Origin: Candidatus Buchananbacteria bacterium
GTDB taxonomy: Bacteria > Patescibacteriota > Patescibacteriia > 2-01-FULL-39-33
Direction: 5' to 3'
DNA length: 64,000 bases
Assembly: GCA_041666945.1 (NCBI GenBank)
Contig: JBAYFY010000003.1
Location: 7,392 to 71,391 of the forward strand
A program made the position numbers and the translations under genes. Within the stretch, counting starts at the first letter, position 1; the number at the start of each line of letters is the position of its first letter. The notes below the pieces were generated by a model, which had not been told where the DNA came from, did not search any database, and was given only the letters and a program-made list of their open reading frames with translations. Shown piece after piece: positions 14,301 to 55,896 of the stretch.

Positions 14301-14920
14301 AAACCCACAGTGCACTCGCGACTGCGCCGCTCTTGCGGCCAATTGGGAAAAGCCGAATCGGAAAACTCGCAAATAGTCACTTTTTTCTTTGTGCTGTCAG
14401 GCAAGCAATCGGCGCCGATGCAATTCGGTATGCAACTGGGATCAGTCAGAACGCAACCGCCCCAAAACTCGTCATCACCGCAAATCTGTTGGCCACCGCA
14501 ACCGCCGCTGCTGCAAGATTTGATATCGCCGGGAGTACACGGCTGCCCTTGAGGATTGAACCAGGACATTAAAAATGAAGCGATGGCAAAAGCGGAAAAA
14601 ATGATCACTAAGCCGATAATCGCATTATAGATCATTTTTTTGGCTTTATTGACTTTATCCGGATCGCCTCCGGCCGTCATCCATAAAAAGCCGGCGTAAA
14701 TAATTAGCAGTAACGCCACCACGCCCAGTAAACCGAAAACAACCTGCAGAATGCGACCGATAATCATACCCAAACTGGCAGTACCGAAAATTCCTGACAA
14801 ACTTTCTAATGTGGGCGCGCTTGGAGTTTGCGCCCAGGCAAAATTACCGACGGCAAAAAATGCCGCCAATATCAGCAGGGAAAAAACGATTTTCAATTTT
14901 GTCTTGCGTTTTACAGGCAT
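2330..14920 (-). CDS. Giant (4196 aa) secreted, extremely cysteine-rich multidomain surface protein. Signal peptide plus VirB2/TrbC-like two-helix pilin-like N-module; IPT/TIG-like domains; lamin-tail domain; LamG/concanavalin-A-like jelly-roll; Myxococcus-type cysteine-rich repeats (CGNxxxExGExCDDGN).
   Basis: Single uninterrupted 12.6-kb ORF. N-terminus MPVKRKTKLKIVFSLLILAAFFAVGNFAWA (signal) followed by GRILQVVFGLLGVVALLLIIYAGFLWMTAGGDPDKVNKAKKMIYNAIIGLVIIFSAFAIASF (two TM helices). EWVEIYNPTVSPVSLDDWRI is LTD-like. LTISAWVRLDN...LYINGQEAGS...IDELKVYNRALSADEV is LamG-like. CGNKLVEPGEDCDDGN, CGNARIEYGEQCDDGN and CGNNRIETGEECDDGS are MXAN Cys-rich repeats. Confidence 0.8.
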   Translation of the reverse strand: MPVKRKTKLKIVFSLLILAAFFAVGNFAWAQTPSAPTLESLSGIFGTASLGMIIGRILQVVFGLLGVVALLLIIYAGFLWMTAGGDPDKVNKAKKMIYNAIIGLVIIFSAFAIASFLMSWFNPQGQPCTPGDIKSCSSGGCGGQQICGDDEFWGGCVLTDPSCIPNCIGADCLPDSTKKKVTICEFSDSAFPNWPQERRSRECTVGFYGSVQVPKSPTLQVKVYSYNADDAVSELSLFDLKDNTEKQIGSANVVSQIITINNQQYNAAAATLSWDTSLAEYDSLSSTTLRSFANNKSYPSNKIQAKFSPSHCFNGVKDVDEQGIDCGGGCAQNCSDFPCTRPDSPVCDDSNCINYCGANCYCVGNPVITWVDPSFDPNNDSSLRDINTLDDDIGYGAAGNYLTVYGRGFGRVAGEVRFVAKNSGAITLAKLADCASVWQDNKIVIEVPTGLDSVNDLPANYKIEVINKTKPQSPLVSNTWDFLANNIKLPGLCSIDPTSGVYPTAVDLTGRGFAADGTGKVIWYVRDSSVNYWRLVGVTSTAAVSWTDTTVKDVVPEGRRGDSVVRVYNGGYSNSVLFNIGNGSEGDSCGDNIGGDPAVCFASSADCRSNLTCQGCSNKSEDIGKWFYRVDCDMAKNCTCQKAAGQECVYNSDPAQNAVMGCDLGGCLGQKTCRADNTWGVCVKNDSACVPYLGTNPASLGLYSWSFLASLSPQAGRRCLSDLWQDGTCDPKNCGNDLGCDTAGSNEEWVEIYNPTVSPVSLDDWRIVYSGRQESIADLLSDSSAATYFIPRGVILEAGNYFIISTSTLNPGNNFQLRKDQGTIAFIKGLGDEIADIIIYNSSTVAFSPGSWGRKVDGLYTGSVKDFVYFPNSSPGQTNKIGQSSSTDHLVINEISLAHEACTCVPAAQLCTPNQTDLKSCPDLGNCKQQRVCQANGHWGGCEPLPNQVCYPTGQQASLSLYSWTFLATHELGPKKFYVVVDCSRGSACKDGDNLPSPTPSDRWTMATAGVTNSEACLNAAISARFNRPMDVKSLNEVETDLTMPGWKNLKIYKKDVSGEWQPVIPNGSFSSYASRDLGSPDLFDYFEFMPQTLEADTDYKVVLTSGVVSYEGFPLYVDQQALQSGGCDDLTKFPHAAFCWNFHTRSQGDNDKYCRVGCVHCSPQKFVNRYYGQERPHKSDVLSEDNVCIMLNADTFNWSWQEEEQTNGIWAKGTNNYSIISDFIRSKATSTAQKESDWRTYQDALFTSSDQGYFRIASIELTTGNSGTCPGHNNFTDPIVVENPVCVVGDNGLAGKLQSPSPFRGTTTEACINASLLALFSRNMTNATLDRTRIKVQKCAGTNAANDVLSTSLNACADIDLSKWQLDIFNYSHSDLSWQEIVSAPAEQYDSLAAEGIRLSPFNNSGPVRLDPNTFYRVIILGGDNGVRGAKSKQGIDEVREGVLQTPSLGDNYFSDGQNDYFWYFKTGAVDCPIDFVGVLPQKKLMKYTDESQIYIADPQHKCQHLNPYLYIWQWSSLLNLSDENTACNAATGNGVAQICSVSSAGVCPVVYTGSAPVVKVFGNSEGFTNIKARAVGSAQGGATCSADKWGRGELQIGYGGFKVINPTNDACLNTEVRFKFTTDAISASLKENDNILLYQCAVGDAACVISGANQPLNLVYPTLAEQQFTNEVAVKPVGLLATATPYRVVVKGGSSGPISFANSQLGGLNYATSQSKGSEQCDPTVYPFRPGDPYDGFCDSSTCLIKEGEDLCDTSLAECAAQDAALVAYYKFAAGNNLIDSSGHNYALRSAGNTNISFVGSPFGQAPKFVGSTGQTALETTNSAGLVSQLKNSNPLTISAWVRLDNGVLGLADAKDDRGLGIIASTYKYSDDASQLRGWTLGDDWGCALRWGCPAPDEIFFQIFDNSGQRAVVTYPDFFSNYGGKWTLVTGVFIPGNSIKLYINGQEAGSVKTAISSVAYDLATPLRIGHRADYLDQGQWDGLIDELKVYNRALSADEVGKLFSAGDYCDESCRAKGNSNSASCGNKLVEPGEDCDDGNIKNNDGCSAVCLWEGANARWNSRCGNARIEYGEQCDDGNANSADGCSSKCLYEAGYASGSGKYAALNCDNNNISTTTIQVSARSVAVSKVCFKNSVGCTADCLHTGSAPSAPVCGNNRIETGEECDDGSGKNGADKRCGATCLLNSAEKSGTCRNNKLDSGILDSYSWTFQLDQNAQYCEPFGVGLNPCPNGIWQFHPAKDVSEFTITLYKGYNGTTAPSGDCIAANNLGFWQRTIKQLVSFVKRMFGLRSVMAADYWCKLSEKTFDSSALQQMRWGNFQDSASFTTREGVTNNLEIIGYSVDNDSYELNYINKNNNWEANTEYRAAISYIKSKVRATTAATVLTFATACQIKKVTTNVWPKGDQKTVDSFFCNSDPAQGKPDDCGRYSADPYDDDMSAIWTNNPSQSGYSLDATGAPIVAEGVSYKSGNQHLYRSWARDGHGYPLRASFSWVLSNLNTDMVSSTVDYTNNNSFDIWMTPGKKTGKSILSISAADNNAANNGVNVGEGRGTMSIMNVECDNPWPAARYFPFEDTNANCKDGDSSSCINTNFWTWYCRDSGAANVCVMGDNTGQACQSQNDCFANGQYVEGSCRLYQDDDLPSIGDFTYDSVTNVIKPSTAVVIGGGDESCVNLPNTFVPKFGYYNNGDGKLYLWNSKGEVYARESIVGGESWHKVDKAPWQAAGLPANFKPVLGYYFNDDNSNCPAEAVQFWDAAGKYLTLKNGQWVTGSKYVGPKTNLPANFHPLAAYTYTLTIGGSEKTYLEIMDTDGNYAYWQQPNSCNNANDLPRWSEVKKEETRGLPADFKLATAYNVGNVLHVWSARGDHYRADVTAINFIFSKDDSAKSGLISGFKPVIAYYDNSYAGTGMPAEIISDGKFYYYKISNSWQRFTLQEKDCDAKVKEFLFTRSTTASAAAEAQIYLSAKDADFSDVDRVCGADTNCQPQIWADGSTVQMNANYSGLKFNFDVKSKGKYYVFLQTSDGFKALPGLVQKVDLKVDNNPTSTESIEASAPDDQQTTRFGTAAGAAYELDRGSHSALVRWTNDTPAGAAVDSNFRLYNIRLVKQESADLLDAVGIRVYDNNSHYSPARWYANRFGGKNNNPKSLLVDGYQAVSDGRTVYVAAADLTNDATQIYSSVYLMSYNLDANESTINIFNQLVNNWEFNVGDNLNPGEHSGGLYYNDSGENLKGCDNNPSGQDYCLTDIDCLKRGQSYCLSQKAKLIRDTKRLADVQEINVRLKNYYDQTRCSNDLAKICKTTANCSGSGVCGNYYPDLKSGTYIANKSYSAWPSWQQTLAAVLGGGNLPVDPINKFVGCASPASSVTCWNEDTKTMTCPSADSAVYSYIAANSGNSVTLSVKQEFGSNSNAWQPSWRLVPGLMYYNNAAGLRQNPFESYFVSSMCAALPPTCGNGQMDAGENCSNCYLDNACPISQSCQNQGGLWGCYAITNCGNGIKDVSEECDSGIGCTNCRCDSGYNCSGLTPFPVCGDGLIRGDETCEFDPATGKAFCEATAGAGCCCRYPTDPGCSGFCQCKAGYNCPSATPVINCGNGIKEPGEACDCGNTGYTPLPKPPLNLFECLANNGSNNQLYSNLRKGDSYQSCSADCQSIITAKFAYCGDGVVNGGEQCDSGQCCDGSCQWIIGGKPDDNQPGVTTKCNGDISQNAGECAVGYQWVSGRGCEPRIGQVCNEAGNCQCDTANNFVNTSTDPILLNCVCRTGYILKTGICQAIPLGQKCQDTENPVSLGNGTCTTCQEWCNLSEVPTAVGQANWDFYSSHTGFIWSVNNDPCRQTQVKGVACSPNPDIWSCAAAGNSCSDFSSCRTEIKYGPYCGNGVWDSQWETNKINDESADPEADGSNTYPKISDLTFCSDAPTGNLADPNASLDWNLPAYTGDADDYIIWKSNIPPQATQNSWEVHLLPYQGECVSGNSLSFDNELLGSVTEEGPYRISAKTKYSNSTDSLFLLFLKPSGLACFMANWDADKDYNCWWGCPGTHYRKGDTIYSPVTRDNSNANAFTMSNSSGFVCTNNGEIIGSNQFLLYDKDCRLISGQASANGAYISSLKYHQPIKIRFLRAYLDGQNYKIEDKWLTLDGSGNLIVGAAASEEDSKEYTGATLSSYSSFASKPLINCLNTCSANAGSANYCFEFRNRWGNIE

Positions 14921-14940: not shown

Positions 14941-17900
14941 TTAATCGCAACCGTTGCCGTCGCAACATTTTCCCAAACAGCACTTAGTTGCTCCGTTTGC
15001 ATCGGCTATGGGAAAATCCTTGGTAACCACCCAGCTGCCGTATTTAAATTTTGTCGTATCCGCAGAAGTGGCGATCGGTTCCATGCAGGTCTTGGCGCAA
15101 TTAACTTTAGCGCCCGTAATATCTTTACAATTCATATAACCGAAAGAGGCGGGATTGGTTTTGTTTATCGGAGACGGCATAGTCAAGGCAACATCGGCGA
15201 CGCAACCGGCGGTATTATATTCGTCATCAATCTTATAACGGCATTTATTAAACTCAATATTCGCTTGATAGCTCCAACCTGCGGGCAGCGCTGATGAATC
15301 AGCGGCGGCATTTTGCGGACCGGAACCGGGCAAATAACAATTCTGCGTGACTGATTCCAGGCCCGAACCGGCGCCGGGCGCGTAGGTAACCGCTTGGTCG
15401 TAAGGGTTGTGATCAACTAAGGCCACGCTATAATCAATCAAGCCATCACCTGAACCCTGGCCGTAAACATCGCCTTCGTCTAAATTATTTACTGCCGCCC
15501 AATAACCGACAGGGTTGGCGTTTTGCGTTACCGTGCCTAACATTAAAAAACGGGTATAGAAATTACGGTCGGCCAAACCTTCACCATAACCGAAACCGGG
15601 CTTAAGGGTAACGGGATTCATTAGTCGATCAAAAGCGAAAACAACCGGATCGCCAAAGACCTCGCTGCTATCCTGCCCCCAACTCTCATCGCCTCGGGGC
15701 TGGATGGAAAACAATAACGGCGATTTATCATCAATTACCGTGGAAACAAAAAATGACCAGGAAAAATCATCGCCTTTCGTCGGGTTGGCATCGTAAGTCG
15801 GCTTTTCAATCCCATTATCAATTACAAACGTATCATTGACCAAATAAGGATTGGTTTTGCCGGAGTAGCCATAAAGCGCGCCGGAAACGGCTTGCCCCGT
15901 ACGACCCTCCGCCACACCCACGGTTTTGCCTTGGTTATCAACCGCATTAGTGTAATTGCCATTTAAAGAATTACCGGACATATCCGTAATGCCGCTGGTA
16001 TCAGTCAAAGCGGCTTGAGGATAATAAATATCGTCTTTCTTGCAACGATCATAAGCGCCACCCTCGCATTGCCCGCCCCAGCGCTTGCACCAAACATTAC
16101 TGCCGTCATCAACGCTTTTGCCTTGGCAGGATTGCAAAACGGCTGCGGCAACCACGATTTGGAATGGTTCGGATTTGGCAGCGGCTCCGGCCGAAGGGTC
16201 AATCCAGCAGTATCTTTCTTTACCGCAAGCATTCTGGCCGCAAGGATAAATGCCGGTCATTTGCACGGTCTTATACTGATTAGAAACATCATACTTAATT
16301 CTATCGGCGGGAATGTCAATCCAAGTGTTGCCGACTTTAGTTTGAACCTTGACCGTATCGGTTAAATTCAACGGATTAATTGCTTTATTGAAAGTAACAA
16401 AGAAAATGGAATTATTATAAACGTCAGGTGCCGCGCCTTGCTGGGTTTTGAGTTGATTTTTATTTTTACCGGATAAATCGCCAACTATGGTCATGATGCT
16501 ATCAGCCGCCGATTTATCAATGCTTAAGTTATTGGCTCCGGCTCCTTTTGGTTTGATAATCAAATATGCCGGCGAGCCCGCGGGGCTGACTGAGACATCA
16601 ACTAAATTCTTCGCTCCCGAACCGGCGATGGCATTCCGCAGATTTTCCAAAGTGCCGCCAATATTACCGGCCTTAACCACTGCGGTATAATTAACTGTTG
16701 CCGGTTGACCGTCAATTCCGACTTGGGTCTTGGCGACGTTGACGCCGTTAGCGTAGGCATCAGAAGCAAAAATGAAATTAATTTTATTAGCGCCGTTATT
16801 AATAACATAGGTATCGCCGGCAACGGCCGTTTCGGCCGTAAATCTCCATTGACTGCCTTGGGTAAAAGTTCCGCCTTCCGCGGCTATAGTCAAACCGTTG
16901 CCTAAATCAAAACTGACGCCGCTGACAATAGTAAAGGTCTTGCCGGTAAGCGGAGCTGGGGAATCATTAGTAAAAGCAGCGCTTCTGCCATCGCTGGAAA
17001 CGGTAAAAGTTGCTGTCCCCGCGCCCAAATCAAAACCGCTCGGCGTACTGACATGGGCCTTAAAGCCGGCGGGAACATTGCCGCTGGCGTTAGTTAGCTC
17101 TTTCTTCAGGGCTCGGCCCAAAAAATATTCGCCTTGCAGTTTAACCGGCTTTTCTGCTTTCAAATTAACTAAGGATAGTAAAGTAGTGGTAGATCCGCCG
17201 GTAGTGGATTGCGAGGAAACGGAATATAAATCCGGCTCCGTATCAGGGTAAGGATAAACTTCATATTTAACCACCTGCGGCGGATTCAAATCCAATTTGC
17301 CGTTTGTCTTGAATGACCAGGTATAATAATCCATCTTCCATAGTTTGAAAATCGACTCGCCGGTGGAAGAAGCAATAATGCCGTTTTTCAACGTAACCAT
17401 AAATTCTCTATTGGCGCCGTCTTCTTTGCCTAAGAAAGAATTGGTTAAAAACACAAAGGTCTTATCATTGCCCGGAGTTTGAGTGACGGTGGTACTGGCG
17501 CCGTTAAAAGTTTGCGCGGTGAAATCGCCGTTTTCCAAACACTTGCGCGGGGTAGCTTCGGTATCGGCCTCGCAGATTTCAATGTTAGCGCTGGCGCTGT
17601 TGGAACAATAACCAGCGGCATTGGGAACGCAAATGCTGTCAGGTTTGATATTTGATTTGAAAGTTACCACGATCCTGGTGTTAATCGGCACATTGGTCTG
17701 ATTGGGCGCGGGATAAACGCTTTCAATCGGCCCGTTGCCGATACCGCCACGACCCCAATCGTCCGGTCCGCCGGGTATGCCGCCGCCGGGTATGCCGCCG
17801 CCTCCGCCTCGGCCGAATATTCCCATTAACCAAGTAGTAATGGCGAAAGCCGCAAAAATTATAACTAAACCGATAATGGCGTTATAAATTATTTTCTTGG

Positions 17901-18258
17901 CTTTATTGACCTTATCCGGATCGCCTCCAGCCGTCATCCAAATGAAACCGCCGTAAATAATTAAAAGTACCACGATTACTCCCAATAAGCCGAAAATAAC
18001 TTGCAACACCCGGCCGATGTAAGTGGCTAACGAGGTTTCAGTGGCAATCCCGGCGGCTTGGCCGACCGCTTGCAGATTAGCATCTTGCGCCAGAACGGAA
18101 CCGGCTAAAAAGAGACCGCAAAGGGAAATAAAAAACACCAAAATCAGCGCCAATGCCTGCTTGGTGTTTAAAGTCACGATCAAAAACGACTTTAGTTTTC
18201 CGCCCCGGGCGGAATTTGATCGGGAGAACTTTTGCATGGGGACAAAAGCTTTTAACAT
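14941..18258 (-). CDS. Large (1105 aa) secreted Cys-containing surface protein with the same signal peptide plus pilin-like two-helix N-module as the giant protein, followed by a Gly-rich linker and beta-rich repeats.
   Basis: N-terminus ...ALALILVFFISLCGLFLAGSVLAQDA (signal), then GRVLQVIFGLLGVIVVLLIIYGGFIWMTAGGDPDKVNKAKKIIYNAIIGLVIIFAAFAITTWLMGIFG. This is near-identical in pattern to residues 55-125 of the 4196-aa protein. It is followed by GRGGGGGIPGGGIPGG. The stop lies 20 nt upstream of the giant gene start, so co-transcription is likely. Confidence 0.75.
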   Translation of the reverse strand: MLKAFVPMQKFSRSNSARGGKLKSFLIVTLNTKQALALILVFFISLCGLFLAGSVLAQDANLQAVGQAAGIATETSLATYIGRVLQVIFGLLGVIVVLLIIYGGFIWMTAGGDPDKVNKAKKIIYNAIIGLVIIFAAFAITTWLMGIFGRGGGGGIPGGGIPGGPDDWGRGGIGNGPIESVYPAPNQTNVPINTRIVVTFKSNIKPDSICVPNAAGYCSNSASANIEICEADTEATPRKCLENGDFTAQTFNGASTTVTQTPGNDKTFVFLTNSFLGKEDGANREFMVTLKNGIIASSTGESIFKLWKMDYYTWSFKTNGKLDLNPPQVVKYEVYPYPDTEPDLYSVSSQSTTGGSTTTLLSLVNLKAEKPVKLQGEYFLGRALKKELTNASGNVPAGFKAHVSTPSGFDLGAGTATFTVSSDGRSAAFTNDSPAPLTGKTFTIVSGVSFDLGNGLTIAAEGGTFTQGSQWRFTAETAVAGDTYVINNGANKINFIFASDAYANGVNVAKTQVGIDGQPATVNYTAVVKAGNIGGTLENLRNAIAGSGAKNLVDVSVSPAGSPAYLIIKPKGAGANNLSIDKSAADSIMTIVGDLSGKNKNQLKTQQGAAPDVYNNSIFFVTFNKAINPLNLTDTVKVQTKVGNTWIDIPADRIKYDVSNQYKTVQMTGIYPCGQNACGKERYCWIDPSAGAAAKSEPFQIVVAAAVLQSCQGKSVDDGSNVWCKRWGGQCEGGAYDRCKKDDIYYPQAALTDTSGITDMSGNSLNGNYTNAVDNQGKTVGVAEGRTGQAVSGALYGYSGKTNPYLVNDTFVIDNGIEKPTYDANPTKGDDFSWSFFVSTVIDDKSPLLFSIQPRGDESWGQDSSEVFGDPVVFAFDRLMNPVTLKPGFGYGEGLADRNFYTRFLMLGTVTQNANPVGYWAAVNNLDEGDVYGQGSGDGLIDYSVALVDHNPYDQAVTYAPGAGSGLESVTQNCYLPGSGPQNAAADSSALPAGWSYQANIEFNKCRYKIDDEYNTAGCVADVALTMPSPINKTNPASFGYMNCKDITGAKVNCAKTCMEPIATSADTTKFKYGSWVVTKDFPIADANGATKCCLGKCCDGNGCD

Positions 18259-24100: not shown

Positions 24101-26965
24101 TCAAGTTACGATGGAAATTAATTTTCCCTTAATGAAAATGATTTTTTTCGGTTCGCCAATTAAATATTTTTTGACGTTCTTATCAGCCAAAGCAGCTGTC
24201 TTAACCGCTTCTTCGGTTGCATCTGTCGGCAAAATCAACTTAGCCCTGATCTTGCCGTTAACCTGCACCGGAATTTCTTTTTCCGCATCAATAATTTTTT
24301 CCGGATCGTACTGCGGCCATGACTCTTTGAAGATGCTATCCGTATGACCGAGTTTCTCCCATAATTCTTCGGCTAAATGCGGAGCGAAGGGAGACAAGAT
24401 GATTAAAATCTTTTCCCATTGCTCCCGACTAACGGCTTTAGCGTCGGGAATTTCATTAAACAAAATCATCATGGCGGAAATAGCGGTATTATAACTCATC
24501 GTTTCAATATCTTCGCCGACTTTCTTGACGGTTTTATCAAGTATAACTTCTACTTCGCTCTTCTCTTCTTTACTTAGAGTTTGCCGGCCGATATCCCACG
24601 CCTTATTCAAAAACCGGTGCACGCCCAAGATATTCTTGGTGCTCCAGGGCTTCATATCTTCCAAAGGGCCCATAAACATTTCATACAGGCGGAAAGTGTC
24701 AGCGCCGTATTCTTTCAGGATGTCGTCGGGATTAACCACATTGCCGCGCGACTTAGACATTTTTTCGCCATCCTCGCCCAAAATCAAACCTTGATTGACT
24801 AACTTAGCAAACGGTTCTTCCTGCGGCACGACGCCGATGTCAAACAAAACCATATTCCAAAAACGGGCATAAAGCAAATGCAAAACCGCGTGTTCGGCTC
24901 CGCCGAGATACAAATCAACCGGCAGCCAATATTTCATTTTTTCGGCAGCAGCGATAGCCGTGTCATTATGCGGATCAATATAGCGCAGCCAGTACCAAGA
25001 CGAACCCGCCCATTGTGGCATGGTGTTGGTTTCGCGCTTAGCCGGACCGCCGCAGTTGGGACAAGTCGTATTCACCCACTCGTCAATAGTCGCCAGTGGC
25101 GATTCGCCTGTGCCGGTCGGTTCGTATTTTTCCACTTCCGGCAAAGTCAGAGGTAAGTCCTTCTCATCCAGAGTTACAGTTCCGCATTTCTTGCAATGCA
25201 CCAAGGGAATCGGTTCGCCCCAATATCTTTGGCGGGAAAAAACCCAATCGCGCAATTTATAATTAACCGCTTTCCGGCCATAACCCTTCTCTTCCAGCCA
25301 GGCCGTCATCTTGCTGATTGCTTCTGCCGGCGCCAAGCCGTTTAAAAATTCCGAATTAACCATCAAGCCGTTATTCACGTCCGTATAAGCAATATCGCCT
25401 TTCTTAATCCGTTCCAGCCAAATATCCATTTCGGCATGAACCATAAAATCAACCGTCAGTTTCTCCGGTTCCAGCCATAAAATCTCATTCTGCGCTTCTT
25501 TTTCTTCCTCGGCTATTTCAGCTTGTTCTTCATCAACCAAATCAAATTGGATTAAATTGGTATAAGACACCCGATTAACGCCTTTATGATTGGCAAAATA
25601 CTCGGCTCGCACTTGTCCGCCCAGAATCTTGCCGTTTGCCAAATGCTTATAGCCGGTTTCTTCCAGCACTTCCCGCTTAGCGGCGGCAAGCGGTTCTTCA
25701 CCTTCGCTCATTCCGCCCATGGGAAAAGTATTCCAGTTATATTTTTTTGAATGCAGAACAAGGATTTTTCCGGTTCGCGGATTGCGGACAACGACTTGAA
25801 CGTTTTTCCGTTCCACTTTTTCCTTGCCGTCCACTGGCGGATTTCTTTTGTCTATCCTTTCTGGAACAATGACTTCAATAATCGGCAAATCAAATTTTTT
25901 GGCAAATTCAAAATCCCTATCATCATGAGCCGGCACAGCCATAATCGCGCCCGTACCGTAAGACGCCAGGACATAATCGGAAATCCAAATTGGAATTTCC
26001 GCATTATTAACCGGATTGATTGCTTTAATGCCCTTCAACTCCATGCCGGTTTTATCTTTATTGAGTTCCGTCCGTTCCAAATCGGATTTATTTTTGGCAG
26101 AATCAATATAAGCTTCAACTTCAGCAAAATTAGAGATCTGGCCTTTCAATTCTTGCGCCAATTGATGTTCCGGCGCCAAAACCATGTAAGTCGCGCCGAA
26201 CAAGGTGTCGGGGCGAGTGGTATAGACAGTGATCTTTTTATCGCTTCCGGCAATCTTGAAGTCAACTTCGGCACCCTCGCTGCGGCCAATCCAATTTTTC
26301 TGCAAAATTTTAATGGACTGCGGCCAATCCAGCTGGTCAACGCCTTTCAGCAACCGATCGGCGTAAGCGGTGATCTTCAGCATCCACTGACGCATATCGC
26401 GGCGTTCCACTGCTGTGCCGCAACGATCGCATTTGCCGTTTTTGACTTCCTCATTGGCCAATCCGGTTTTGCACGACGGACAAAAATTAATCGGCACGGT
26501 CGCCTCGTAAGCCAAACCCTTTTTAAAAAGTTGCAAAAAAATCCACTGCGTCCATTTGTAATATTTCGGATCGGTCGTATCCACTTCCCTGTCCCAATCG
26601 TAAGAAAACCCGAGCGATTGGATTTGGCGCTTGAAGGTGGCGATGTTCTGTTCGGTGGTAAGCCGCGGATGCGTGCCGGTTTTGATGGCATAATTTTCCG
26701 CCGGCAAACCGAAAGCGTCCCAGCCCATCGGGTGCAAAACATTAAAACCTTTTAATCGCAAGTAACGGGAATAAATATCGGTTGCCGTGTAACCTTCCGG
26801 ATGACCGACATGCAGGCCCGCTCCCGACGGATAGGGAAACATATCCAAAATATACTTCTTGGGCTTGGCGCCGAAATCATCGGCTCGATCAATTTTGGTG
26901 TTCAGCCATTTTTTTTGCCACTTGGCTTCGCCGCCAGCGGCTAAAAACTCTTTATACGAAAGCAT
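24101..26965 (-). CDS. leuS: Leucyl-tRNA synthetase carrying an inserted NUDIX hydrolase domain of about 165 aa
   Basis: HVGHPEGY (HIGH), EKMSKSRGN (KMSKS), CP1 editing domain. Between ...FDLPIIEVI and [12 protein letters not shown] lies a domain with a perfect Nudix box [23 protein letters not shown] (GX5EX7REUXEEXGU). Confidence 0.9.
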
Positions 26966-43059: not shown

Positions 43060-46000
43060 CTAATTAATTTTTTCAATCTTTATCTTCACTTTTTCGCCAT
43101 TGATGTTAACCGGCTTGGCGTCGCTGTCCGCTTCCGCGATTTCCTGGGTGAGGGTGGATTTTTTCAGTTCTGCGTTAAGCGCCGGATCGGCCAGGACTTT
43201 TTTCACTATTTCTCCTTCGCTTTGCCAGCTTAATCTGATTCTGTCTTTAATGGTCAAGCCGGCGTCCTTGCGCAAAGTGTTGATCGTCCTGACCAATTCG
43301 CGCCAAGCGCCTTCAATTTTCAACTCATCGGTCAATTTGGTGTCCAAGTCAATTTTAATTTCCGTCCCGCCGGCAAATTCCAAATTCTTAAGGTTCAGTT
43401 TGTCTTTAATCAAATTTATGAGTTGCTGTTTATACGATTCTTCGGCTAACGCCAGACCGTAAACCGTGGCCTGATTAAGCGGCTGCCTGATTTTTATCTT
43501 GGCCTCGGCTCGGGCGGACAAACCCATCTCTTCTATGGTAGCGACTAAGCTCATTTGCTCCTTCAATTTGTTGCTGGCGTCTGTTGCTTCCCGGCTGCCG
43601 TAAAATTCCTCATCAACCTGCGGCCAGGTCTCCAAATGAACCGATTCCAGTTTGCCGCCGATCTGCTTGTAAACATATTCGGCGATAAAAGGCGTGAAAG
43701 GCGCCATGACTTTGGATAATTCCATCAGAACGAAGCGGAAGGTGGCGATGGCTTGACGCTTGTCCGTTTCATCGTCGCCTTTCAGGCGGTCGCGCGACGA
43801 TTGCAGCCAGCGAGTGGAAAATTCATCTATAAATTCGGCCAGTGGGCGGGTGGCGCGCGGCAAATCATACGCTTCCATGTTTTTGGTCACCTCCAAAATC
43901 AATAAATTCAATTTTACCAGCAGCCATTTATCCAAAATATTTACGCTGTCGGCCGCTAACGACGCCGTCGGTTCCGAGGCCTCGTACAGCTTATAAAAAC
44001 TCAAAATATTGTTCAAAAGCATAGTAACTTTCTGCATCGCTTCCTTGACGCCGTCATCGGAAAAATTCAAATTCTCCGCGGCCATGACCGGCGCGGTCAA
44101 AAGATAGAAACGCAAAGCGTCGGCGCCGTACTTGTCCATGATGATTTTAGGTTCGGTGTAGTTCAGTAAATGCTTGGACATCTTTTTGCCGTCTTCGGCC
44201 AGAACGATGCCGTTGACGATGACGTTTTTAAACGCCTCGCCGCCTCTGATGGCCGCGGCAATGATATGCAAATAATAAAACCAGGCGCGCGTCTGATCTA
44301 CGCCTTCGGCGATAAACTGCGCCGGAAAGCCGGCCAGGAATTTTTCCTGATTGGCAAACGGGTAGTGCTGTTGGGCGTAAGGCATGGAACCGGAATCAAA
44401 CCAGGTATCCAGCACATCGGGAATCCTCGTCATCTTTTGGCCGCATTTGGGGCAGACGATTTGCCATTGATCCACGAAATGTTTGTGCAAATCGGTTATT
44501 TTCTGTTTTATCTCCAGCACTTGCCCTTTATCCAAAGCTAGTTCTTTGAAAGTCCGGCTCGGCTCGTAACCGTAAAGCTTGCCCAAAAGCGACCTGATCG
44601 CATCTTCATGGCTGACTAACAGGATATTCTTGCCTTTGTGCTTCTCATTCAATTCTTGGTATAGAGCCAGCATTCTTTCGGTCACCTGCCTGACGCTTTC
44701 GCCGCCGGGATAAGCCGCATCCCAATTGTCTTTCCATTTGGCGATAAACTCCCGGGCTCCGGCATCAATATCGGATTGCTCTTCCAGTCCGCCGGCGTTG
44801 AGTTCGTTCAGGCGGGAATCAAAAACCAATTCCGCGCCCGTGGCCGCGGCAATAATTTGCGCCGTTTCCTTGGCGCGCAACACTTCGGAAGAAACAATCA
44901 GATTAATTTTTTTGTCTTGCAGTCCGCTGGCGGCCGCTTGGATTTGCTTTTGGCCGGCGGCTGTCAAAGGATGGATGTTTAAGCCGCTGCTGAACACGTG
45001 CTTGATATTTTTTTCCGCTTCGCCGTGCCTGATGGCGAAAAAATTATTCCGATCTATTTTCAATTCTTCCAGTTCGGCCACGCTGCCGATGACTTTAATC
45101 TCGCCGCACTGGCAACGCCATAAAGGAATGACGCTGGCCCAGAAACGCTGGCGGGAAATCGACCAGTCGCGCGCGCCCAAAAGCCACTTGCCGAAACGGC
45201 CTTCCTTGATATGCGCCGGCGACCAATTAATTCCCTTAGCGGTCTCTAAGGCCTTCGGCTTGATATCCGTCACCTTGACAAACCATGAATCGGTGGCGTA
45301 GTTAATGAGCGGCGTATCGCAACGCCAGCAATGCGGATAGCTGTGCTCGTATTCGGCACTGGCAAAAAGCAGATTATTTTTGTCCAAATATTCAATGACT
45401 TTTTTGTCGGTCGCTTTGGTGTCTCCTGCCGGTTTGACGTTCAGGCCGGAAAAATCCGCGACTTCATCTTTAAAATTGCCGCTGAACGTAACATTCTGGA
45501 TCATGGGCAGGTTTTTCTCTCGGCCCAGTTGCATGTCCTCTTCGCCGTAAGCCGGAGCGATATGCACTACGCCCGTGCCGTCCTCGGTGGTCACGAAATT
45601 CGCTGATACGATAGTATACAAATTATCTTTATTAGGCAGATCCTTATCTAAATAATATGGGAATAATGGTTTGTATTTTTTACCAACTAATTCTGAACCT
45701 TTAAATTCTTTTACAATTTTATATTCTTGATTACCAAAAACTTTTTCTAATAATGCTTTTGCTAAAATCAACTGGATTCCCGCCTGCGCGGGAATGACGA
45801 TGGACACATAATCAACGTCCTCACCCACTGCGAGCGCCACATTGCCGGGCAAAGTCCAAGGCGTAGTGGTCCAAGCCAAAACAAAAGTATTGTCATTAGT
45901 AACAAAATCGCCGATTTTCTGTCCCGCCGCCAATTTAAATTTAGCGGTAACCGACAAATCCTTGATATCCTTGTAGCCCTCGCTGACTTCCTGCTGGCTT

Positions 46001-46563
46001 AAAGTCGTTTCGCATCTCGGACAAATATGCATGGATTTGTAACCTTGGTAAATCAAGCCCTTGTCGTATAATTCCTTAAACACCCACCAGATTGATTCCA
46101 TGTAAGGCAAATCCATGGTTTTGTAAGAGTCGGCCATATCCGCCCAACGTCCGAAACGGGCGATGGTTTTCTTCCATTCCTCAACATAGACCAAAACTTT
46201 GCTGCGGCAATACTCATTGAATTTGCCGATGCCGTAATCCTCAATATCTTTTTTGCTTTTGAATCCCAATTCCTTCTCCACGATATTTTCAATCGGCAAG
46301 CCGTGGCAATCCCAGCCCCAGCGGCGTTCCACGTAACGACCGCGCATCGTCCAGAATCTTGGCACCGCGTCCTTCATCAAGCTGGCCACCATGTTGCCGT
46401 AGTGCGGCGTGCCCGTGGCAAAGGGCGGGCCGTCGTAAAAGCTGTGGGCCTCGCCGTCTTTTGTCTGCTCCAGCGATTTCTCAAAAATCTTGTTATCGGC
46501 CCAAAATTTTTGGATTTCCCGTTCTCTTTCCGGAATCGGATTAATCCACTTCTTTTCTTCCAT
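43060..46563 (-). CDS. ileS: Isoleucyl-tRNA synthetase carrying an inserted histidine-phosphatase (phosphoglycerate-mutase-like) domain of about 185 aa between its zinc-knuckle halves
   Basis: PHYGNM (HIGH-type), KMSKH, CP1 editing domain (TTPWTLPGNVALAV). Between CQCGEIKVIGSVAELEE and CPKCGQKMTRIPDVLDTWFDSGS lies FFAIRHGEAEKN...LLVSHEDAIRSL (RHG and SH motifs). True start is MEEKKW at 46563; the ORF-track N-terminus (MVFFCFNNFNY) translates the leader U-run. Confidence 0.9.
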   Translation of the reverse strand: MEEKKWINPIPEREREIQKFWADNKIFEKSLEQTKDGEAHSFYDGPPFATGTPHYGNMVASLMKDAVPRFWTMRGRYVERRWGWDCHGLPIENIVEKELGFKSKKDIEDYGIGKFNEYCRSKVLVYVEEWKKTIARFGRWADMADSYKTMDLPYMESIWWVFKELYDKGLIYQGYKSMHICPRCETTLSQQEVSEGYKDIKDLSVTAKFKLAAGQKIGDFVTNDNTFVLAWTTTPWTLPGNVALAVGEDVDYVSIVIPAQAGIQLILAKALLEKVFGNQEYKIVKEFKGSELVGKKYKPLFPYYLDKDLPNKDNLYTIVSANFVTTEDGTGVVHIAPAYGEEDMQLGREKNLPMIQNVTFSGNFKDEVADFSGLNVKPAGDTKATDKKVIEYLDKNNLLFASAEYEHSYPHCWRCDTPLINYATDSWFVKVTDIKPKALETAKGINWSPAHIKEGRFGKWLLGARDWSISRQRFWASVIPLWRCQCGEIKVIGSVAELEELKIDRNNFFAIRHGEAEKNIKHVFSSGLNIHPLTAAGQKQIQAAASGLQDKKINLIVSSEVLRAKETAQIIAAATGAELVFDSRLNELNAGGLEEQSDIDAGAREFIAKWKDNWDAAYPGGESVRQVTERMLALYQELNEKHKGKNILLVSHEDAIRSLLGKLYGYEPSRTFKELALDKGQVLEIKQKITDLHKHFVDQWQIVCPKCGQKMTRIPDVLDTWFDSGSMPYAQQHYPFANQEKFLAGFPAQFIAEGVDQTRAWFYYLHIIAAAIRGGEAFKNVIVNGIVLAEDGKKMSKHLLNYTEPKIIMDKYGADALRFYLLTAPVMAAENLNFSDDGVKEAMQKVTMLLNNILSFYKLYEASEPTASLAADSVNILDKWLLVKLNLLILEVTKNMEAYDLPRATRPLAEFIDEFSTRWLQSSRDRLKGDDETDKRQAIATFRFVLMELSKVMAPFTPFIAEYVYKQIGGKLESVHLETWPQVDEEFYGSREATDASNKLKEQMSLVATIEEMGLSARAEAKIKIRQPLNQATVYGLALAEESYKQQLINLIKDKLNLKNLEFAGGTEIKIDLDTKLTDELKIEGAWRELVRTINTLRKDAGLTIKDRIRLSWQSEGEIVKKVLADPALNAELKKSTLTQEIAEADSDAKPVNINGEKVKIKIEKIN

Positions 46564-46596
46564 ATAATTAAAATTATTAAAACAAAAAAACACCAA

Positions 46597-52374: not shown

Positions 52375-54135
52375 ATGGGGACTAAAAACGAACAACTTGA
52401 TAAAATCCGCCATTCCACTTCCCACATCATGGCTTATGCTGTGCGGGAAATTTTTGGCGACAAAATTAAATTCGCCATTGGCCCGACGATTGACGACGGT
52501 TTTTACTATGATTTTGATTTGGGCGATAAAACCTTCACTACTGAAGACCTCAAAGCGATTGAAAAAAGAATGGCGGAACTGATCAAGAAAAAACTGCCGT
52601 TTGAAAAATCTGATTTGCCGGTCAAGGAAGCGCTGAAAAAAATGTCCGACCAGCCCTACAAACAAGAACTGATTAATGACTTAGCCAAGGCCGGAGAAAC
52701 CGCCGTCAGTTTTTACGCTGTCGGCGACTTTACCGATCTCTGCCGCGGCCCTCACGTGGAAAATACCAAGGAGTTGGGCGTATTTAAATTAATGAAAACC
52801 GCCGGCGCTTATTGGCGCGGCGACGAGAAAAACAAAATGCTGCAAAGAATCTACGGTACGGCTTTTGAAACCAAAGAACAATTGGCTGAATATTTGAAAA
52901 TGCTGGAAGAAGCGGAAAAACGGGATCACCGCACACTCGGCAAAGAATTGGATTTATTTGTTTTTTCCGATTTAGTCGGCAAGGGCTTGCCAATATTCGG
53001 TCCAAAGGGCGCGACCATTAAAAGAGAGCTGGAAAGGTTTACCATTGATGAAGAATTGAAGCGAGGATATCATCATGTCGTTACTCCGGATTTGGCTAAA
53101 GTCGATCTTTACAAAAAATCCGGGCACTATCCTTACTATAAAGATACGATGTACCCGGTAATGAAAATCGACGAGGAGGAATTGATTCTCAAACCGATGA
53201 CTTGTCCGCACCATTTCATGTTTTATAAATCAGAACCGCACAGTTACCGCGAGTTGCCATACCGTATCGGCGAGATCGCTCATCAATATCGTTATGAAAA
53301 AAGCGGCGAACTGTCCGGATTAACCCGTGTCAGAATGTTCTGTCTTGCCGATGCCCATATTATTGCCGCCAAAGATCAGGCCAAGCAAGTCATCAAGGAA
53401 GTTTTGGAATTAATTGACTTTATTAATGGAACGCTGGGTTTAGTCAAGGGCAAGGATTATCGTTATCGCCTGTCACTCGGCGACCGCTCTGATAATAAAA
53501 AATATTATAAGGATGATGCTTCATGGGATTATGCCGAAAATGTCTTGCGTGAGGTTCTGACCGAAGTTAAAGCGCCATTTTATGAGGCCGCCAATGAGGC
53601 CGCATTTTACGGTCCGAAAATAGATATTCAGGTAAAGAAGGTTTCGGGCAGCGAGGAAACGGCTTTTACTGTCCAATACGATTTTGTTATGCCGGAACGC
53701 TTCGACCTATTTTTTACAAATAAAGAAGGCGAGCAAGAAAAGCCGATTGTTATCCATCGTTCCTCCATTGGTTGTTTGGAGAGAACAATGGCATTTTTGA
53801 TCGAGCATTATGCCGGCGCCTTCCCTACTTGGCTGTCGCCGGTGCAAGCCGTGGTTATCCCGGTGTCGGAAAAATTCACTGACTATGGCCAGAAAGTTTA
53901 TGACGAACTGCTTGCCGCCGGCGTGCGCGTCAAACTGGATGATGCCGACGAATCATTGGGTAAGAGGATTAGAAACGCCGAGAAACAAAAAACTCCCTAT
54001 ATCTTAGTAGTGGGAGAAAAAGAAGCCGCCGCTAAAACCGTGTCTGTGCGCAAGCGTGGCGAAGGCGATCTGGGCAGTCAGCCGCTTAACCAATTCATTG
54101 AGGAAATACAAAAAGAAATTAAAGAAAAGGAATAA
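52375..54135 (+). CDS. thrS: Threonyl-tRNA synthetase lacking the N-terminal TGS domain
   Basis: Begins at the editing/SAD domain (RHSTSHIMAYAV). Class II motifs (FRIGEIAHQYRYEKSGELSGLTRVRMF; GPKIDIQV). Anticodon-binding domain. Confidence 0.9.
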   Translation: MGTKNEQLDKIRHSTSHIMAYAVREIFGDKIKFAIGPTIDDGFYYDFDLGDKTFTTEDLKAIEKRMAELIKKKLPFEKSDLPVKEALKKMSDQPYKQELINDLAKAGETAVSFYAVGDFTDLCRGPHVENTKELGVFKLMKTAGAYWRGDEKNKMLQRIYGTAFETKEQLAEYLKMLEEAEKRDHRTLGKELDLFVFSDLVGKGLPIFGPKGATIKRELERFTIDEELKRGYHHVVTPDLAKVDLYKKSGHYPYYKDTMYPVMKIDEEELILKPMTCPHHFMFYKSEPHSYRELPYRIGEIAHQYRYEKSGELSGLTRVRMFCLADAHIIAAKDQAKQVIKEVLELIDFINGTLGLVKGKDYRYRLSLGDRSDNKKYYKDDASWDYAENVLREVLTEVKAPFYEAANEAAFYGPKIDIQVKKVSGSEETAFTVQYDFVMPERFDLFFTNKEGEQEKPIVIHRSSIGCLERTMAFLIEHYAGAFPTWLSPVQAVVIPVSEKFTDYGQKVYDELLAAGVRVKLDDADESLGKRIRNAEKQKTPYILVVGEKEAAAKTVSVRKRGEGDLGSQPLNQFIEEIQKEIKEKE

Positions 54136-54350
54136 TTGAAATTAATTGATATTTAAAATGCGAGCATAATAAAATCTTGTGCGACTTTATGCGGGAACGA
54201 CCAGAAAAGTTTTGCAAGCCTGCCTGCCGGCAGGCAGGTGAAGCGTCAGAAACTTTTCGGGATCCTGCCGGCAGGCAGGTGAAGCATAAAGTTTAGCCAT
54301 GATTTATGCTTCGCTCGCGACTCTTTGGAGATACCTTTCTCTTAGAGAAA

Positions 54351-54592
54351 GGTATTGTAAAAAAGATTATAACCTGGATTCCCGCCTTCGCGGGAATGAC
54401 GAAAGGGGTATTGTAAAAAAGATTATAACCTGGATTCCCGCCTTCGCGGGAATGACGAAAGGGGTATTGTAAAAAAGATTATAACCTGGATTCCCGCCTA
54501 CGCGGGAATGACAAAGAGGGTGCGGGAATGACAAAGAGGGTGCGGGAATGACAAAGAGGGTGCGGGAATGACGAAAGGAGTGCGGGAATGAC
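54351..54592. repeat. Nested tandem direct repeats: three 56-bp units, each containing the hairpin GGATTCCCGCCTTCGCGGGAATGAC, followed by four 20-bp units (AAAGAGGGTGCGGGAATGAC)
   Basis: Units at 54351-54406, 54407-54462 and 54463-54512 are near-identical. The 20-bp units are at 54513-54592. No unique spacers between units. Confidence 0.75.
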
Positions 54593-54726
54593 AAAGGGGT
54601 ATCGTGAAAATTGAAACTCTCTTAATCACCCTTTCATAAAGGGGAGAAATAACCTGGATTCCTGGTCAAGTTTACCCCGTCTTTATGACTGGGGCCAGGA
54701 ATGACAAATAAAAGAATATTAAACAA

Positions 54727-54766
54727 AATAAAAAATCCGATCAATTAATCGGATTTTTATTTTTTA
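54727..54766. terminator. Bidirectional terminator overlapping the histidine-kinase stop codon
   Basis: AATCCGAT-CAATTAA-TCGGATT hairpin flanked by A-rich and T-rich runs. Confidence 0.5.
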
Positions 54767-55896
54767 ACTTTTTGCGCTTTACTTTTGTCCACCAAAGGCA
54801 AAGAAAAACTGAATTTACTCCCCCGGCCCTTGCCCGGCGACTCGGCCCAAATGCGACCGCCTAAATTCTCAATCACCACCCGGGCAAAGTATAGGCCTAG
54901 TCCCGTGCCTTCAGGATGGATAGTGGACATGCCCTGGCCGCGCACGAACTTATTAAACAACCGACCGACATCGCCGGCGGTAATGCCCGAACCGGTATCG
55001 GCCACCGAAAACACCACCGAACTGCCCTCTTGGTGCAAATCCAGGGAAATTTCACCCGCTTTGGTGTATTTGACAGCATTATCAACCAGATTAGAAGCGA
55101 CCTCCTTAATCTTAGCCGAATCAGTTGAAACGTCGGGCAAATCTTTGGAGTAATAAACATTCAGCTTCAATCCCTTAGCCGTCGCTTTAGCTTTGAATTC
55201 TTCTTTCAGCTCATCAGCGATTTTAGCCAAGTCCGCGGGCTTGATATCAAATTCCAACCGGCCGGCTTCAATGCGGGAAATATCCAATAAATTTTCAATC
55301 AAATTAAGCAACCGTTCAGTGGCGATAAAAACCTTATCCAAATTATCTTTTAAGATTTTAGGCACCTTGCCGAAGTTGCCTTCTTGCATCATGGAAACAT
55401 AACCCTTGATAATCGTGGTCGGGGTGCGCAACTGGTGGCTGGCGATGGACAGAAATTCCGATTTGGCGTCATCCAGCCGTTGCAACTCCTTATTGGTAGC
55501 TTCCAATTTTGCCGTCGCTTTTTTGACCCTTTGTTCCAAACTCTTGGTCAATTCTTCCAAGGCGTCGTTGGATTGCGCCTGGGCGAAATTGGCTTCCACA
55601 ATGCTTTCCGTGCTCCGATTGAAAAAGAAACCGTAAACAATGACAAAAGAAAAAATCATGACAACCGCCAAAGTGGAAATATGCCCTTCAACGAAATAAA
55701 ACAGGGCTAAAAAAACCAAAATCATTACCGCGCTGACAATCTGATAATGCAAAAACAAACATTCGCGGAATTTGAACCGGCAATGCTTGCAGCGCTTGTA
55801 AGGAGAATAATTGAGATTTTTTACCAACCAGCAATCTAAATTAAGGCACTCGTTTTTTTTCCTCCTTAAATCCTTTTTGGAACTGGCTGTTTTCAT
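54757..55896 (-). CDS. Sensor histidine kinase (N-terminal Cys-rich segment, 2 TM, HisKA, HATPase_c)
   Basis: H-box LSIASHQLRTPTT. N-box VDNAVKYT. G-boxes DTGSGI and GTGLGLYF. Confidence 0.8.
   Translation of the reverse strand: MKTASSKKDLRRKKNECLNLDCWLVKNLNYSPYKRCKHCRFKFRECLFLHYQIVSAVMILVFLALFYFVEGHISTLAVVMIFSFVIVYGFFFNRSTESIVEANFAQAQSNDALEELTKSLEQRVKKATAKLEATNKELQRLDDAKSEFLSIASHQLRTPTTIIKGYVSMMQEGNFGKVPKILKDNLDKVFIATERLLNLIENLLDISRIEAGRLEFDIKPADLAKIADELKEEFKAKATAKGLKLNVYYSKDLPDVSTDSAKIKEVASNLVDNAVKYTKAGEISLDLHQEGSSVVFSVADTGSGITAGDVGRLFNKFVRGQGMSTIHPEGTGLGLYFARVVIENLGGRIWAESPGKGRGSKFSFSLPLVDKSKAQKVKK

Follow-up and report, generated by a model that had tools for sequence, protein, structure and literature searches.

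Short hairpin repeats of this kind are best described in Neisseria. There, dRS3 was defined as a 20-bp element, ATTCCCN8GGGAAT, which together with RS spacers forms the mosaic elements called NIMEs (Bentley et al. 2007, PMC1797815). The definition was later extended to an oriented 28-nt element, the Neisseria Transformation Sequence (NTS; CGTCATTCCCGCGMAVGCGGGAATCYRG), which is bound by SsnA, a 94-aa GIY-YIG protein that cuts alongside it (Chenal et al. 2025, PMC11893778; hereafter the Ssn paper). SsnA acts on NTS only as single-stranded DNA (ssDNA) and only in the NTS sense, and it has no action on NTS RNA. Its cutting, which needs the GTC just 5' of the palindrome while its binding needs the C just 3', reduces transformation by NTS-bearing DNA, and Ssn-related motifs flank ssnA homologs in many bacteria (PMC11893778). 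Here we analyze a stretch of 64,000 nucleotides (the window) from a Candidatus Buchananbacteria genome, in which a repeat-rich intergenic region separates two convergent genes, thrS (threonyl-tRNA synthetase, ThrS) and a histidine kinase gene. We consider it likely that this region is a NIME-like array of NTS/dRS3-type (Ssn-related) hairpin repeats, recently gained between the thrS stop codon and an ancestral terminator shared by the two genes. Because the repeat is a known and widespread element, the locus is a new example of a known repeat, and not a small-RNA gene or a CRISPR.

We scanned the window with the published NTS consensus and found three matches without mismatch: two in the intergenic region (54374-54401 and 54430-54457) and one (45772-45799) inside the open reading frame (ORF) for isoleucyl-tRNA synthetase (IleRS). 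A fourth match, at 54486-54513, has 2 mismatches and falls outside the criterion of at most 1 mismatch. All four copies lie on the minus strand, fit the degenerate SRM pattern of the Ssn paper (PMC11893778), and conserve the critical nucleotides, GTC 5' and C 3' of the palindrome. The pattern ATTCCCGCN4GCGGGAAT occurs in the window 4 times, where 0.05 would be expected, so that four sequences conform to the dRS3 definition; GCGGGAATGAC was observed 11 times against 1.5 expected. As ssDNA, the NTS copies are predicted to form a hairpin with an 8-bp stem and a 4-nt loop (-8.9 to -9.0 kcal/mol, z = -2.8 to -4.2). The initial annotation, made from the sequence of the region before this analysis, had located these hairpins in the intergenic region; they are there, but a fourth full hairpin lies outside it, at 45776-45795 in the IleRS ORF.

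The likeness to the NTS/SsnA system (PMC11893778) covers the 28-nt consensus (0 mismatches in 3 copies), the oriented flanks (CGTC 5' and CCAG 3'), the predicted ssDNA hairpin, the nucleotides critical for binding and cutting, and the clustering of copies next to genes. The locus differs in its host, a metagenome-assembled genome (MAG) of the Patescibacteria, a group absent from the main text of the Ssn paper; in having perfect 56-bp tandem copies rather than diverse spacers; in having one copy within a coding sequence; and in that we found no ssnA in the window or in a further 8.7 kb. Like NIMEs (PMC1797815), the array alternates 20-bp ATTCCCN8GGGAAT elements with AT-richer spacers, shows a GC wave, and forms a mosaic with other modules; its three dRS3 elements have 36-bp spacers, inside the reported range of 19-214 bp. 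NIMEs were described as Neisseria-specific (PMC1797815), and a Buchananbacteria host does not fit that description. In the array studied here, the spacers are copies of one another and match none of the fetched NTS loci, Neisseria loci among them; similarity to those loci ends at the hairpin, and the array is small (3 full hairpins and 4 half units). We found no report of such repeats in bacteria of the candidate phyla radiation (CPR) in our literature search.

The gap between thrS and the kinase gene is 621 bp long, and all features listed in the initial annotation were recovered in place, some with corrections (Table 1). The three 56-bp direct repeats that it described, each carrying the hairpin, were confirmed by Tandem Repeats Finder (TRF; 56-bp period, 3.1 copies, 54351-54521, 97% matches). 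Each long unit consists of a 5' flank (CYYTTY), a full NTS hairpin, and a 22-nt AT-rich tail. TRF also reported a 20-bp period (5.0 copies, 54502-54600, 93%). The earlier count of four short units holds, as what TRF took for a fifth copy belongs to the third full hairpin as its left arm, but these units are not a separate family. All seven units align in a single register and make up one array, in which the short unit (5' flank, left arm GTCATTCCCGC, and ACC) equals the long unit minus an internal 36 bp, namely the right arm and the AT-rich spacer. Read along the NTS (minus) strand, the four short units (54598 to 54519) precede the three long ones (54518 to 54351), which places the short units 5' of the third full hairpin. 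The short-unit array alone is unstructured, and any of its left arms can pair with the one right arm that the neighboring full hairpin provides. Along the array, dRS3 at 60% GC alternates with spacer at 36%, and a 24-nt sliding profile swings between 0.17 and 0.67 with a period of 56 bp.

The remainder of the gap is made of other structures. The two palindromes of the left mosaic, each followed by TGAAGC, were found as described. The long-range inverted repeat said to enclose them (GCGAGCATAA/TTATGCTTCGCTCGC) is present, but it is imperfect and is not the dominant fold: in the ssDNA fold of the left mosaic (z = -4.5 and -5.2), one CCTGCC palindrome pairs with the other, and GAAGCATAAA and TTTATGCTTC are the arms of a local hairpin. 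A 22-mer of the left-mosaic module, CCTGCCGGCAGGCAGGTGAAGC, occurs in 20 metagenome contigs, and on one of these, a Patescibacteria-like contig, an NTS-like hairpin follows 8 nt further on. The perfect hairpin at the array end, annotated with 11-bp arms, has arms of 12 nt and looks like a fold-back copy of the unit junction. What had been called a degenerate copy with a large loop is an NTS variant, in which ATTCCTGG...CCAGGAAT folds with a 29-nt loop and a 29-nt insert with a nested hairpin replaces the CGCGAAGGCG center. The terminator of the initial annotation is a bidirectional terminator-like hairpin, and it is the ancestral bidirectional terminator common to thrS and the kinase gene; in two relatives (L122 and L124; L-labels denote other loci compared with the window), a comparable hairpin with a T-run takes up most of the short thrS-kinase gap.

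Table 1. Features of the thrS-kinase region, the IleRS copy, and half-site arrays at other loci (positions are those of the window unless a locus label is given)
Feature	Position	Strand	Evidence or remark
thrS (threonyl-tRNA synthetase)	52375-54135	+	Pfam tRNA_SAD, tRNA-synt_2b, HGTP_anticodon
Left mosaic	54161-54330	.	orphan NTS-like left arm, two CCTGCC modules, GAAGCATAAA/TTTATGCTTC hairpin
Orphan NTS-like left arm GCGGGAACGAC	54191-54201		in left mosaic
Module CCTGCC(TGCC)GGCAGGCAGG+TGAAGC, two copies	54219-54244, 54264-54285		in left mosaic
Palindrome CCTGCCTGCCGGCAGGCAGG	54219-54238		then TGAAGC
Palindrome CCTGCCGGCAGGCAGG	54264-54279		then TGAAGC
Hairpin GAAGCATAAA/TTTATGCTTC	54281-54312		in left mosaic
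Perfect palindrome ATACCTTTCTCT-T-AGAGAAAGGTAT, 12-nt arms	54331-54355	.	array end
Three 56-bp long units	54351-54518	-	TRF, NTS consensus scan, ssDNA fold, GC wave
Four 20-bp short units	54519-54598	-	unit alignment, TRF
NTS variant	54649-54708	-	outer flanks TGTCATTCC...GGAATCCAGGTTAT kept; stem ATTCCTGG/CCAGGAAT
Bidirectional intrinsic terminator-like hairpin	54731-54758	.	terminator scan, both strands
Histidine kinase gene, convergent with thrS	54757-55896	-	Pfam HisKA, HATPase_c
Exact NTS copy (palindrome 45776-45795)	45772-45799	-	in frame in IleRS ORF 43060-46596
Half-site array, L007	3519-3969
Half-site array, L137	1251-1325
Half-site array, L152	2315-2384
Half-site array, L176	11278-11332
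Half-site array, L208	1554-1627
Half-site array, L223	2898-2974
Half-site arrays, L230	1634-1732, 7735-7816

Comparison with relatives dates the repeat block. A database protein 100% identical to ThrS is named threonine--tRNA ligase and comes from a Candidatus Buchananbacteria MAG. The closest relatives (L122/L123, ThrS 89% identical) and the next (L124-126, 83% identical) also have thrS and the kinase gene as convergent neighbors, with a gap of 58 bp and 36 bp, respectively, each containing a hairpin followed by a T-run; this comparison rests on reading the gap sequences of the relatives, since a global alignment of the intergenic region is uninformative. In a third group (L127-130, 79% identical), a bAvd-like gene follows thrS. 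The block is absent at all three distances, which answers the question the initial annotation had raised about close relatives, and the syntenic loci of the relatives, about 65 kb of distinct sequence in all, contain neither NTS nor dRS3. From gaps of 58 and 36 bp, it follows that about 550-590 bp were added in the Buchananbacteria lineage, and the block was gained after the split from the relatives with 89% identical ThrS. A second assembly of the same species, the only other one, breaks off within the kinase gene, 70 bp before the region.

Genes of the diversity-generating-retroelement type were seen around thrS in these relatives. L124 carries a reverse transcriptase gene (RVT_1) and bAvd at 1-857, about 5 kb upstream of thrS, and L127-130 have bAvd/23S_rRNA_IVP genes on both sides of thrS (L127 5579-5929 and 7776-8153). 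No such gene lies beside thrS in the window.

The NTS copy in the IleRS gene is likewise lineage-specific. It lies 8.6 kb from the array and encodes IVIPAQAGIQ in the loop between 'VDYV' and 'ILAK', which is hypervariable across 60 homologs, and the ORF that holds it is intact (1178 aa). At the homologous site, relatives L122 and L127 have a different sequence without NTS. Rickettsia palindromic elements (RPEs), about 100-150 bp long, are reported to be tolerated in frame inside protein-coding genes (Ogata et al. 2000). The IleRS copy resembles them as an in-frame palindrome in an essential gene; its sequence is unrelated, and it is only 28 nt (10 codons) long and replaces part of the hypervariable loop. 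The same IleRS has an inserted histidine-phosphatase domain (His_Phos_1, aa 521-694), which is also present in relatives.

Beyond this lineage, the hairpin is widespread. The exact 27-mer CTGGATTCCCGCN4GCGGGAATGAC was found on at least 120 contigs of a species-representative genome collection. Among the matches listed, hosts include Proteobacteria, Chloroflexi, Planctomycetes, Nitrospirae, Desulfobacterota, Bacteroidetes, and Gemmatimonadetes, as well as Paceibacteria, Parcubacteria, Saccharibacteria, Uhrbacteria, and Peribacteria; seven Patescibacteria MAGs and one MAG labeled Nanoarchaeota are included. At least 120 viral (IMG/VR) contigs also contain the NTS consensus. When we compared the window with the NTS loci that we fetched, Neisseria-type loci included, similarity ended at 32 nt or less. 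The 36-bp spacer had 0 matches in metagenome_contigs and none in any of the fetched loci. Similarity that ends at the hairpin, together with an unmatched spacer, means that the hairpin is the dispersed entity and that the array grew by local duplication. Dispersal had been proposed as a check for both the 56-bp unit and the hairpin, and the outcome differs for the two: the hairpin of about 30 nt is widespread in other genomes, while the spacer of the 56-bp unit has no match in the collection and loci searched.

Two other arrangements of related repeats were noted in the collected loci. In other Patescibacteria MAGs, NTS is paired with a similar inverted hairpin 2-70 bp away, mostly CTGGATCCCCGC..GCGGGGATGAC (L017 near 4561, L021 near 6951, L033 near 2460, L050 near 63, L054 near 1135, and L119 near 2134). 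Such pairs look like bacterial interspersed mosaic elements (BIMEs) or miniature inverted-repeat transposable elements (MITEs), and they resemble NTS-ssnA-NTS without the gene. Separately, eight loci (L254, L257, L260, L261, L263, L264, L266, and L270) from microbial-mat and other JGI metagenome contigs have in common an intergenic repeat of about 130 bp or more (e.g., L263 1820-1960). Its ends form the inverted repeat GCTACAAGAAATTGGCG/CGCCAACTTCTTGTAGC, it carries the CCTGCCTGCCGGCAGGCAGGTGAAGC module, its hairpin loops hold variable inserts, and it has no Rfam match.

The order of short and long units in the array proved to be a polar feature of NTS loci more generally. Tandem half-site arrays with a period of 17-24 bp are present at seven other loci (Table 1), and in 6 of the 7 (L137, L152, L176, L208, L223, and L230) a complete hairpin of like orientation follows the array on its 3' side. 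In the seventh, L007 (Nitrospirales), an 18.8-copy half-site array stands beside a full NTS of the opposite direction. Across 240 loci with 496 full hairpins, an orphan left arm occurs within 45 nt upstream of 51 hairpins vs downstream of 8. When only the 197 loci that lack the Neisseria uptake sequence are counted, the numbers are 16 upstream and 0 downstream. Orphan left arms are thus almost always 5' of a complete hairpin, a rule that we did not find stated in the literature searched and that looks new; tandem arrays are not mentioned in the Ssn paper (PMC11893778). This half-site "stutter" extends over Neisseria, Nitrospirales, and Buchananbacteria (CPR). It could arise from hairpin-driven slippage or from nicking on the 5' side followed by re-synthesis.

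A plausible history of the locus would begin with one or a few NTS elements landing downstream of thrS. The 56-bp unit of hairpin plus spacer may then have been duplicated locally by slipped-strand events or unequal recombination, and a 20-bp derivative that had lost the right arm and spacer may have been amplified on the 5' side of the full hairpin. The left part would have been assembled from other dispersed palindromic modules (CCTGCC..GGCAGG plus the GAAGC hairpin). By analogy with Neisseria, the NTS strand, when single-stranded (e.g., during replication or DNA uptake), would fold into the 8-bp-stem hairpin, and an SsnA-type GIY-YIG nuclease would bind it and cut a few nucleotides to its 5' side; the cut would lower recombination of NTS-bearing DNA and might proliferate the repeat. 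Cleavage of the Buchananbacteria copies by an Ssn enzyme is what we infer from this analogy. The minus strand carries 37 of the 43 long ORFs of the window, and GC skew stays negative over the whole length, which makes this strand probably the leading-strand sequence; if the Ssn model applies, the lagging-strand template is where the hairpin would become exposed. On the plus strand, the thrS stop lies before the array and the only terminator lies beyond it; the array is therefore probably in the thrS 3' untranslated region (3'UTR). It is most likely selfish or neutral repeat DNA there, and not a gene.

We weighed this reading against four others, two of which touch on the alternatives left by the initial annotation: a structured small RNA, or an array of repetitive extragenic palindromic (REP)- or MITE-like elements expanding locally. 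A small RNA, or a regulatory thrS 3'UTR whose hairpins act as RNA, has a precedent in the REP elements of E. coli, which stabilize mRNA against 3' exonucleases. The plus strand has no terminator from the thrS stop up to 54731, which makes it probable that thrS transcripts cross the array; ahead of the array is a weak promoter-like site (TTGATA-18-TAAAAT, 54146-54175); and the palindromes would be predicted to fold as RNA too. Transcription, as the thrS 3'UTR or from the promoter-like site, is possible. A function as RNA is nevertheless very unlikely. A scan of both strands with Rfam 15, at E-value and gathering level, returned no family match in the window (0 at gathering level), the best being subthreshold terminator look-alikes of at most 29 bits, and the region holds no known RNA family; the window also contains no tRNA or tmRNA. 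In addition, the block is missing from relatives whose ThrS is 89%, 83%, and 79% identical, only the hairpin of about 30 nt is common to other genomes, and the documented activity of the element concerns ssDNA, SsnA being without action on NTS RNA (PMC11893778). These results do not support the small-RNA proposal. The palindromic-array proposal was right in kind, as the hairpin is the dispersed NTS/dRS3 element and the units are near-identical local duplicates with a spacer matched nowhere else searched, but the specific form in which a REP/BIME cluster is mobilized by a REP-associated tyrosine transposase (RAYT; IS200/IS605-type Y1), or in which the region is a MITE array, seems to us extremely improbable. 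The resemblance is real: both are short extragenic, GC-rich hairpins clustered behind a convergent gene pair, several Patescibacteria loci pair NTS with an inverted variant hairpin in a BIME-like manner, and an enzyme specific for ssDNA hairpins is the suspected spreader in this system and in REP/BIME-RAYT of gamma-proteobacteria. The sequence, however, is NTS with its conserved 5' GTC (head CGTC) and not GTAG/CTAC, the enzymes are of different kinds (GIY-YIG vs HUH/Y1), and a Pfam scan of the window's long ORFs revealed no Y1 transposase or RAYT. Neither terminal inverted repeats nor a target duplication accompany the 56-bp unit, and its spacer was matched nowhere else searched. MITEs were rejected on this last point, with 0 spacer matches in metagenome_contigs and only the hairpin dispersed.

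A model in which rounds of integration and excision built the array, like the one put forward for dRS3 and the IS110/Piv-type transposase of Neisseria filamentous prophages, would explain other aspects of the region. dRS3 is a documented integration site of Nf prophages, and recombinase-driven growth of NIMEs was proposed by Bentley et al. (PMC1797815); NTS is found in many viral contigs (at least 120 in IMG/VR), and the variant at 54649-54708 resembles an NTS with foreign DNA at its center. Yet there is no recombinase or phage gene in the window or in the Pfam annotation of the further 8.7 kb, and the spacers between hairpins are identical copies, which points to tandem duplication rather than independent integrations; we judge this route quite improbable. 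An assembly artifact, or foreign (host) DNA that was taken up and fixed and is not an active element here, receives very little credence from us. The window is identical to part of a 111-kb contig from a short-read metagenome assembly with k = 141 (ENA ERZ27249449, contig k141_1456979), and same-species assemblies from another run break near the locus. Against this, both flanks are syntenic with relatives, which indicates an insertion and not a chimeric join; a second lineage-specific NTS sits in the intact 1178-aa IleRS ORF 8 kb away; and the GC content of the region (0.43) is like that of the genome (0.46). Two further candidates were discarded. The initial annotation had already set CRISPR aside, and rightly: the 36-bp 'spacers' are alike (identical or 93% identical), and there is no cas gene among the Pfam-scanned long ORFs. 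An integron attC array would have an integrase, longer units, and a GTTRRRY core, none of which was seen by sequence inspection.

Several observations count against the NIME-like NTS array that we favor, or narrow it. Only 4 full NTS hairpins occur in 84 kb. The flank variants CCTTTC and CTCTTT are present in both long and short units, so that a simple one-off slippage is not the full explanation. Copy numbers rest on the short-read assembly, and with k = 141 the true numbers could be higher than those assembled. Finally, the nuclease was not found. A regex search, tblastn with the GIY-YIG protein of L095, a profile hidden Markov model (HMM) built from 11 NTS-adjacent GIY-YIG ORFs (best window E-value 1.1), and Pfam all found no ssnA in the 64-kb window, where neither a GIY-YIG gene nor a transposase or recombinase is present. 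Over the 8.7 kb beyond the window start, the same HMM likewise detected no homolog of ssnA, nor is any nuclease, transposase, or recombinase listed in the precomputed Pfam annotation. With no ssnA found in either stretch, Ssn-dependence in Buchananbacteria is hypothetical. The small GIY-YIG family of Patescibacteria offers no support as an Ssn candidate and may not be an Ssn: in the example examined, its gene has a fixed place just upstream of pilM, tightly packed and without flanking hairpins.

That 85-aa family is widespread in Patescibacteria (L273-L280; L273 gene 1501-1758). Elsewhere, the published ssnA layout was reproduced at L095 (1580-1928) and L166 (7785-8165), where a small GIY-YIG gene has an NTS-type hairpin on each side, an architecture like that of an insertion sequence, as reported for ssnA; nine further NTS loci carry a GIY-YIG gene. 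Among the other genes of the window, the leucyl-tRNA synthetase (LeuRS; 24101-26965) has an inserted NUDIX domain (aa 386-513), and a 4196-aa minus-strand ORF with T4SS_pilin, LTD, and Laminin_G_3 domains (2330-14920) adjoins a 1105-aa T4SS_pilin ORF on the same strand (14941-18258).

The identity of the repeat, its recent gain, and its local tandem growth place a NIME-like array, a structure once thought Neisseria-specific, in a Patescibacteria genome of about 1 Mb, where the same NTS hairpin is also tolerated in frame in IleRS. Such arrays yield spurious 'hypothetical proteins' (peptides VIPAQAGIQ and SFPRKRES), so that recognizing them aids annotation, and such repeats can be expected to make short-read assembly harder. 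Two lineage-specific NTS sites are found within 9 kb of each other, and an essential aminoacyl-tRNA synthetase gene contains one of them. A bolder idea, which we put forward as unlikely, is that NTS hairpins are or recently were actively mobile in this ultra-small genome and that the polar stutter is the footprint of their copying, whether this proceeds by Ssn nicking on the 5' side of the hairpin with subsequent re-synthesis or by hairpin-templated slippage. If this is true, the stutter would be the first structural clue to how NTS multiplies, a question left open by the Ssn paper.

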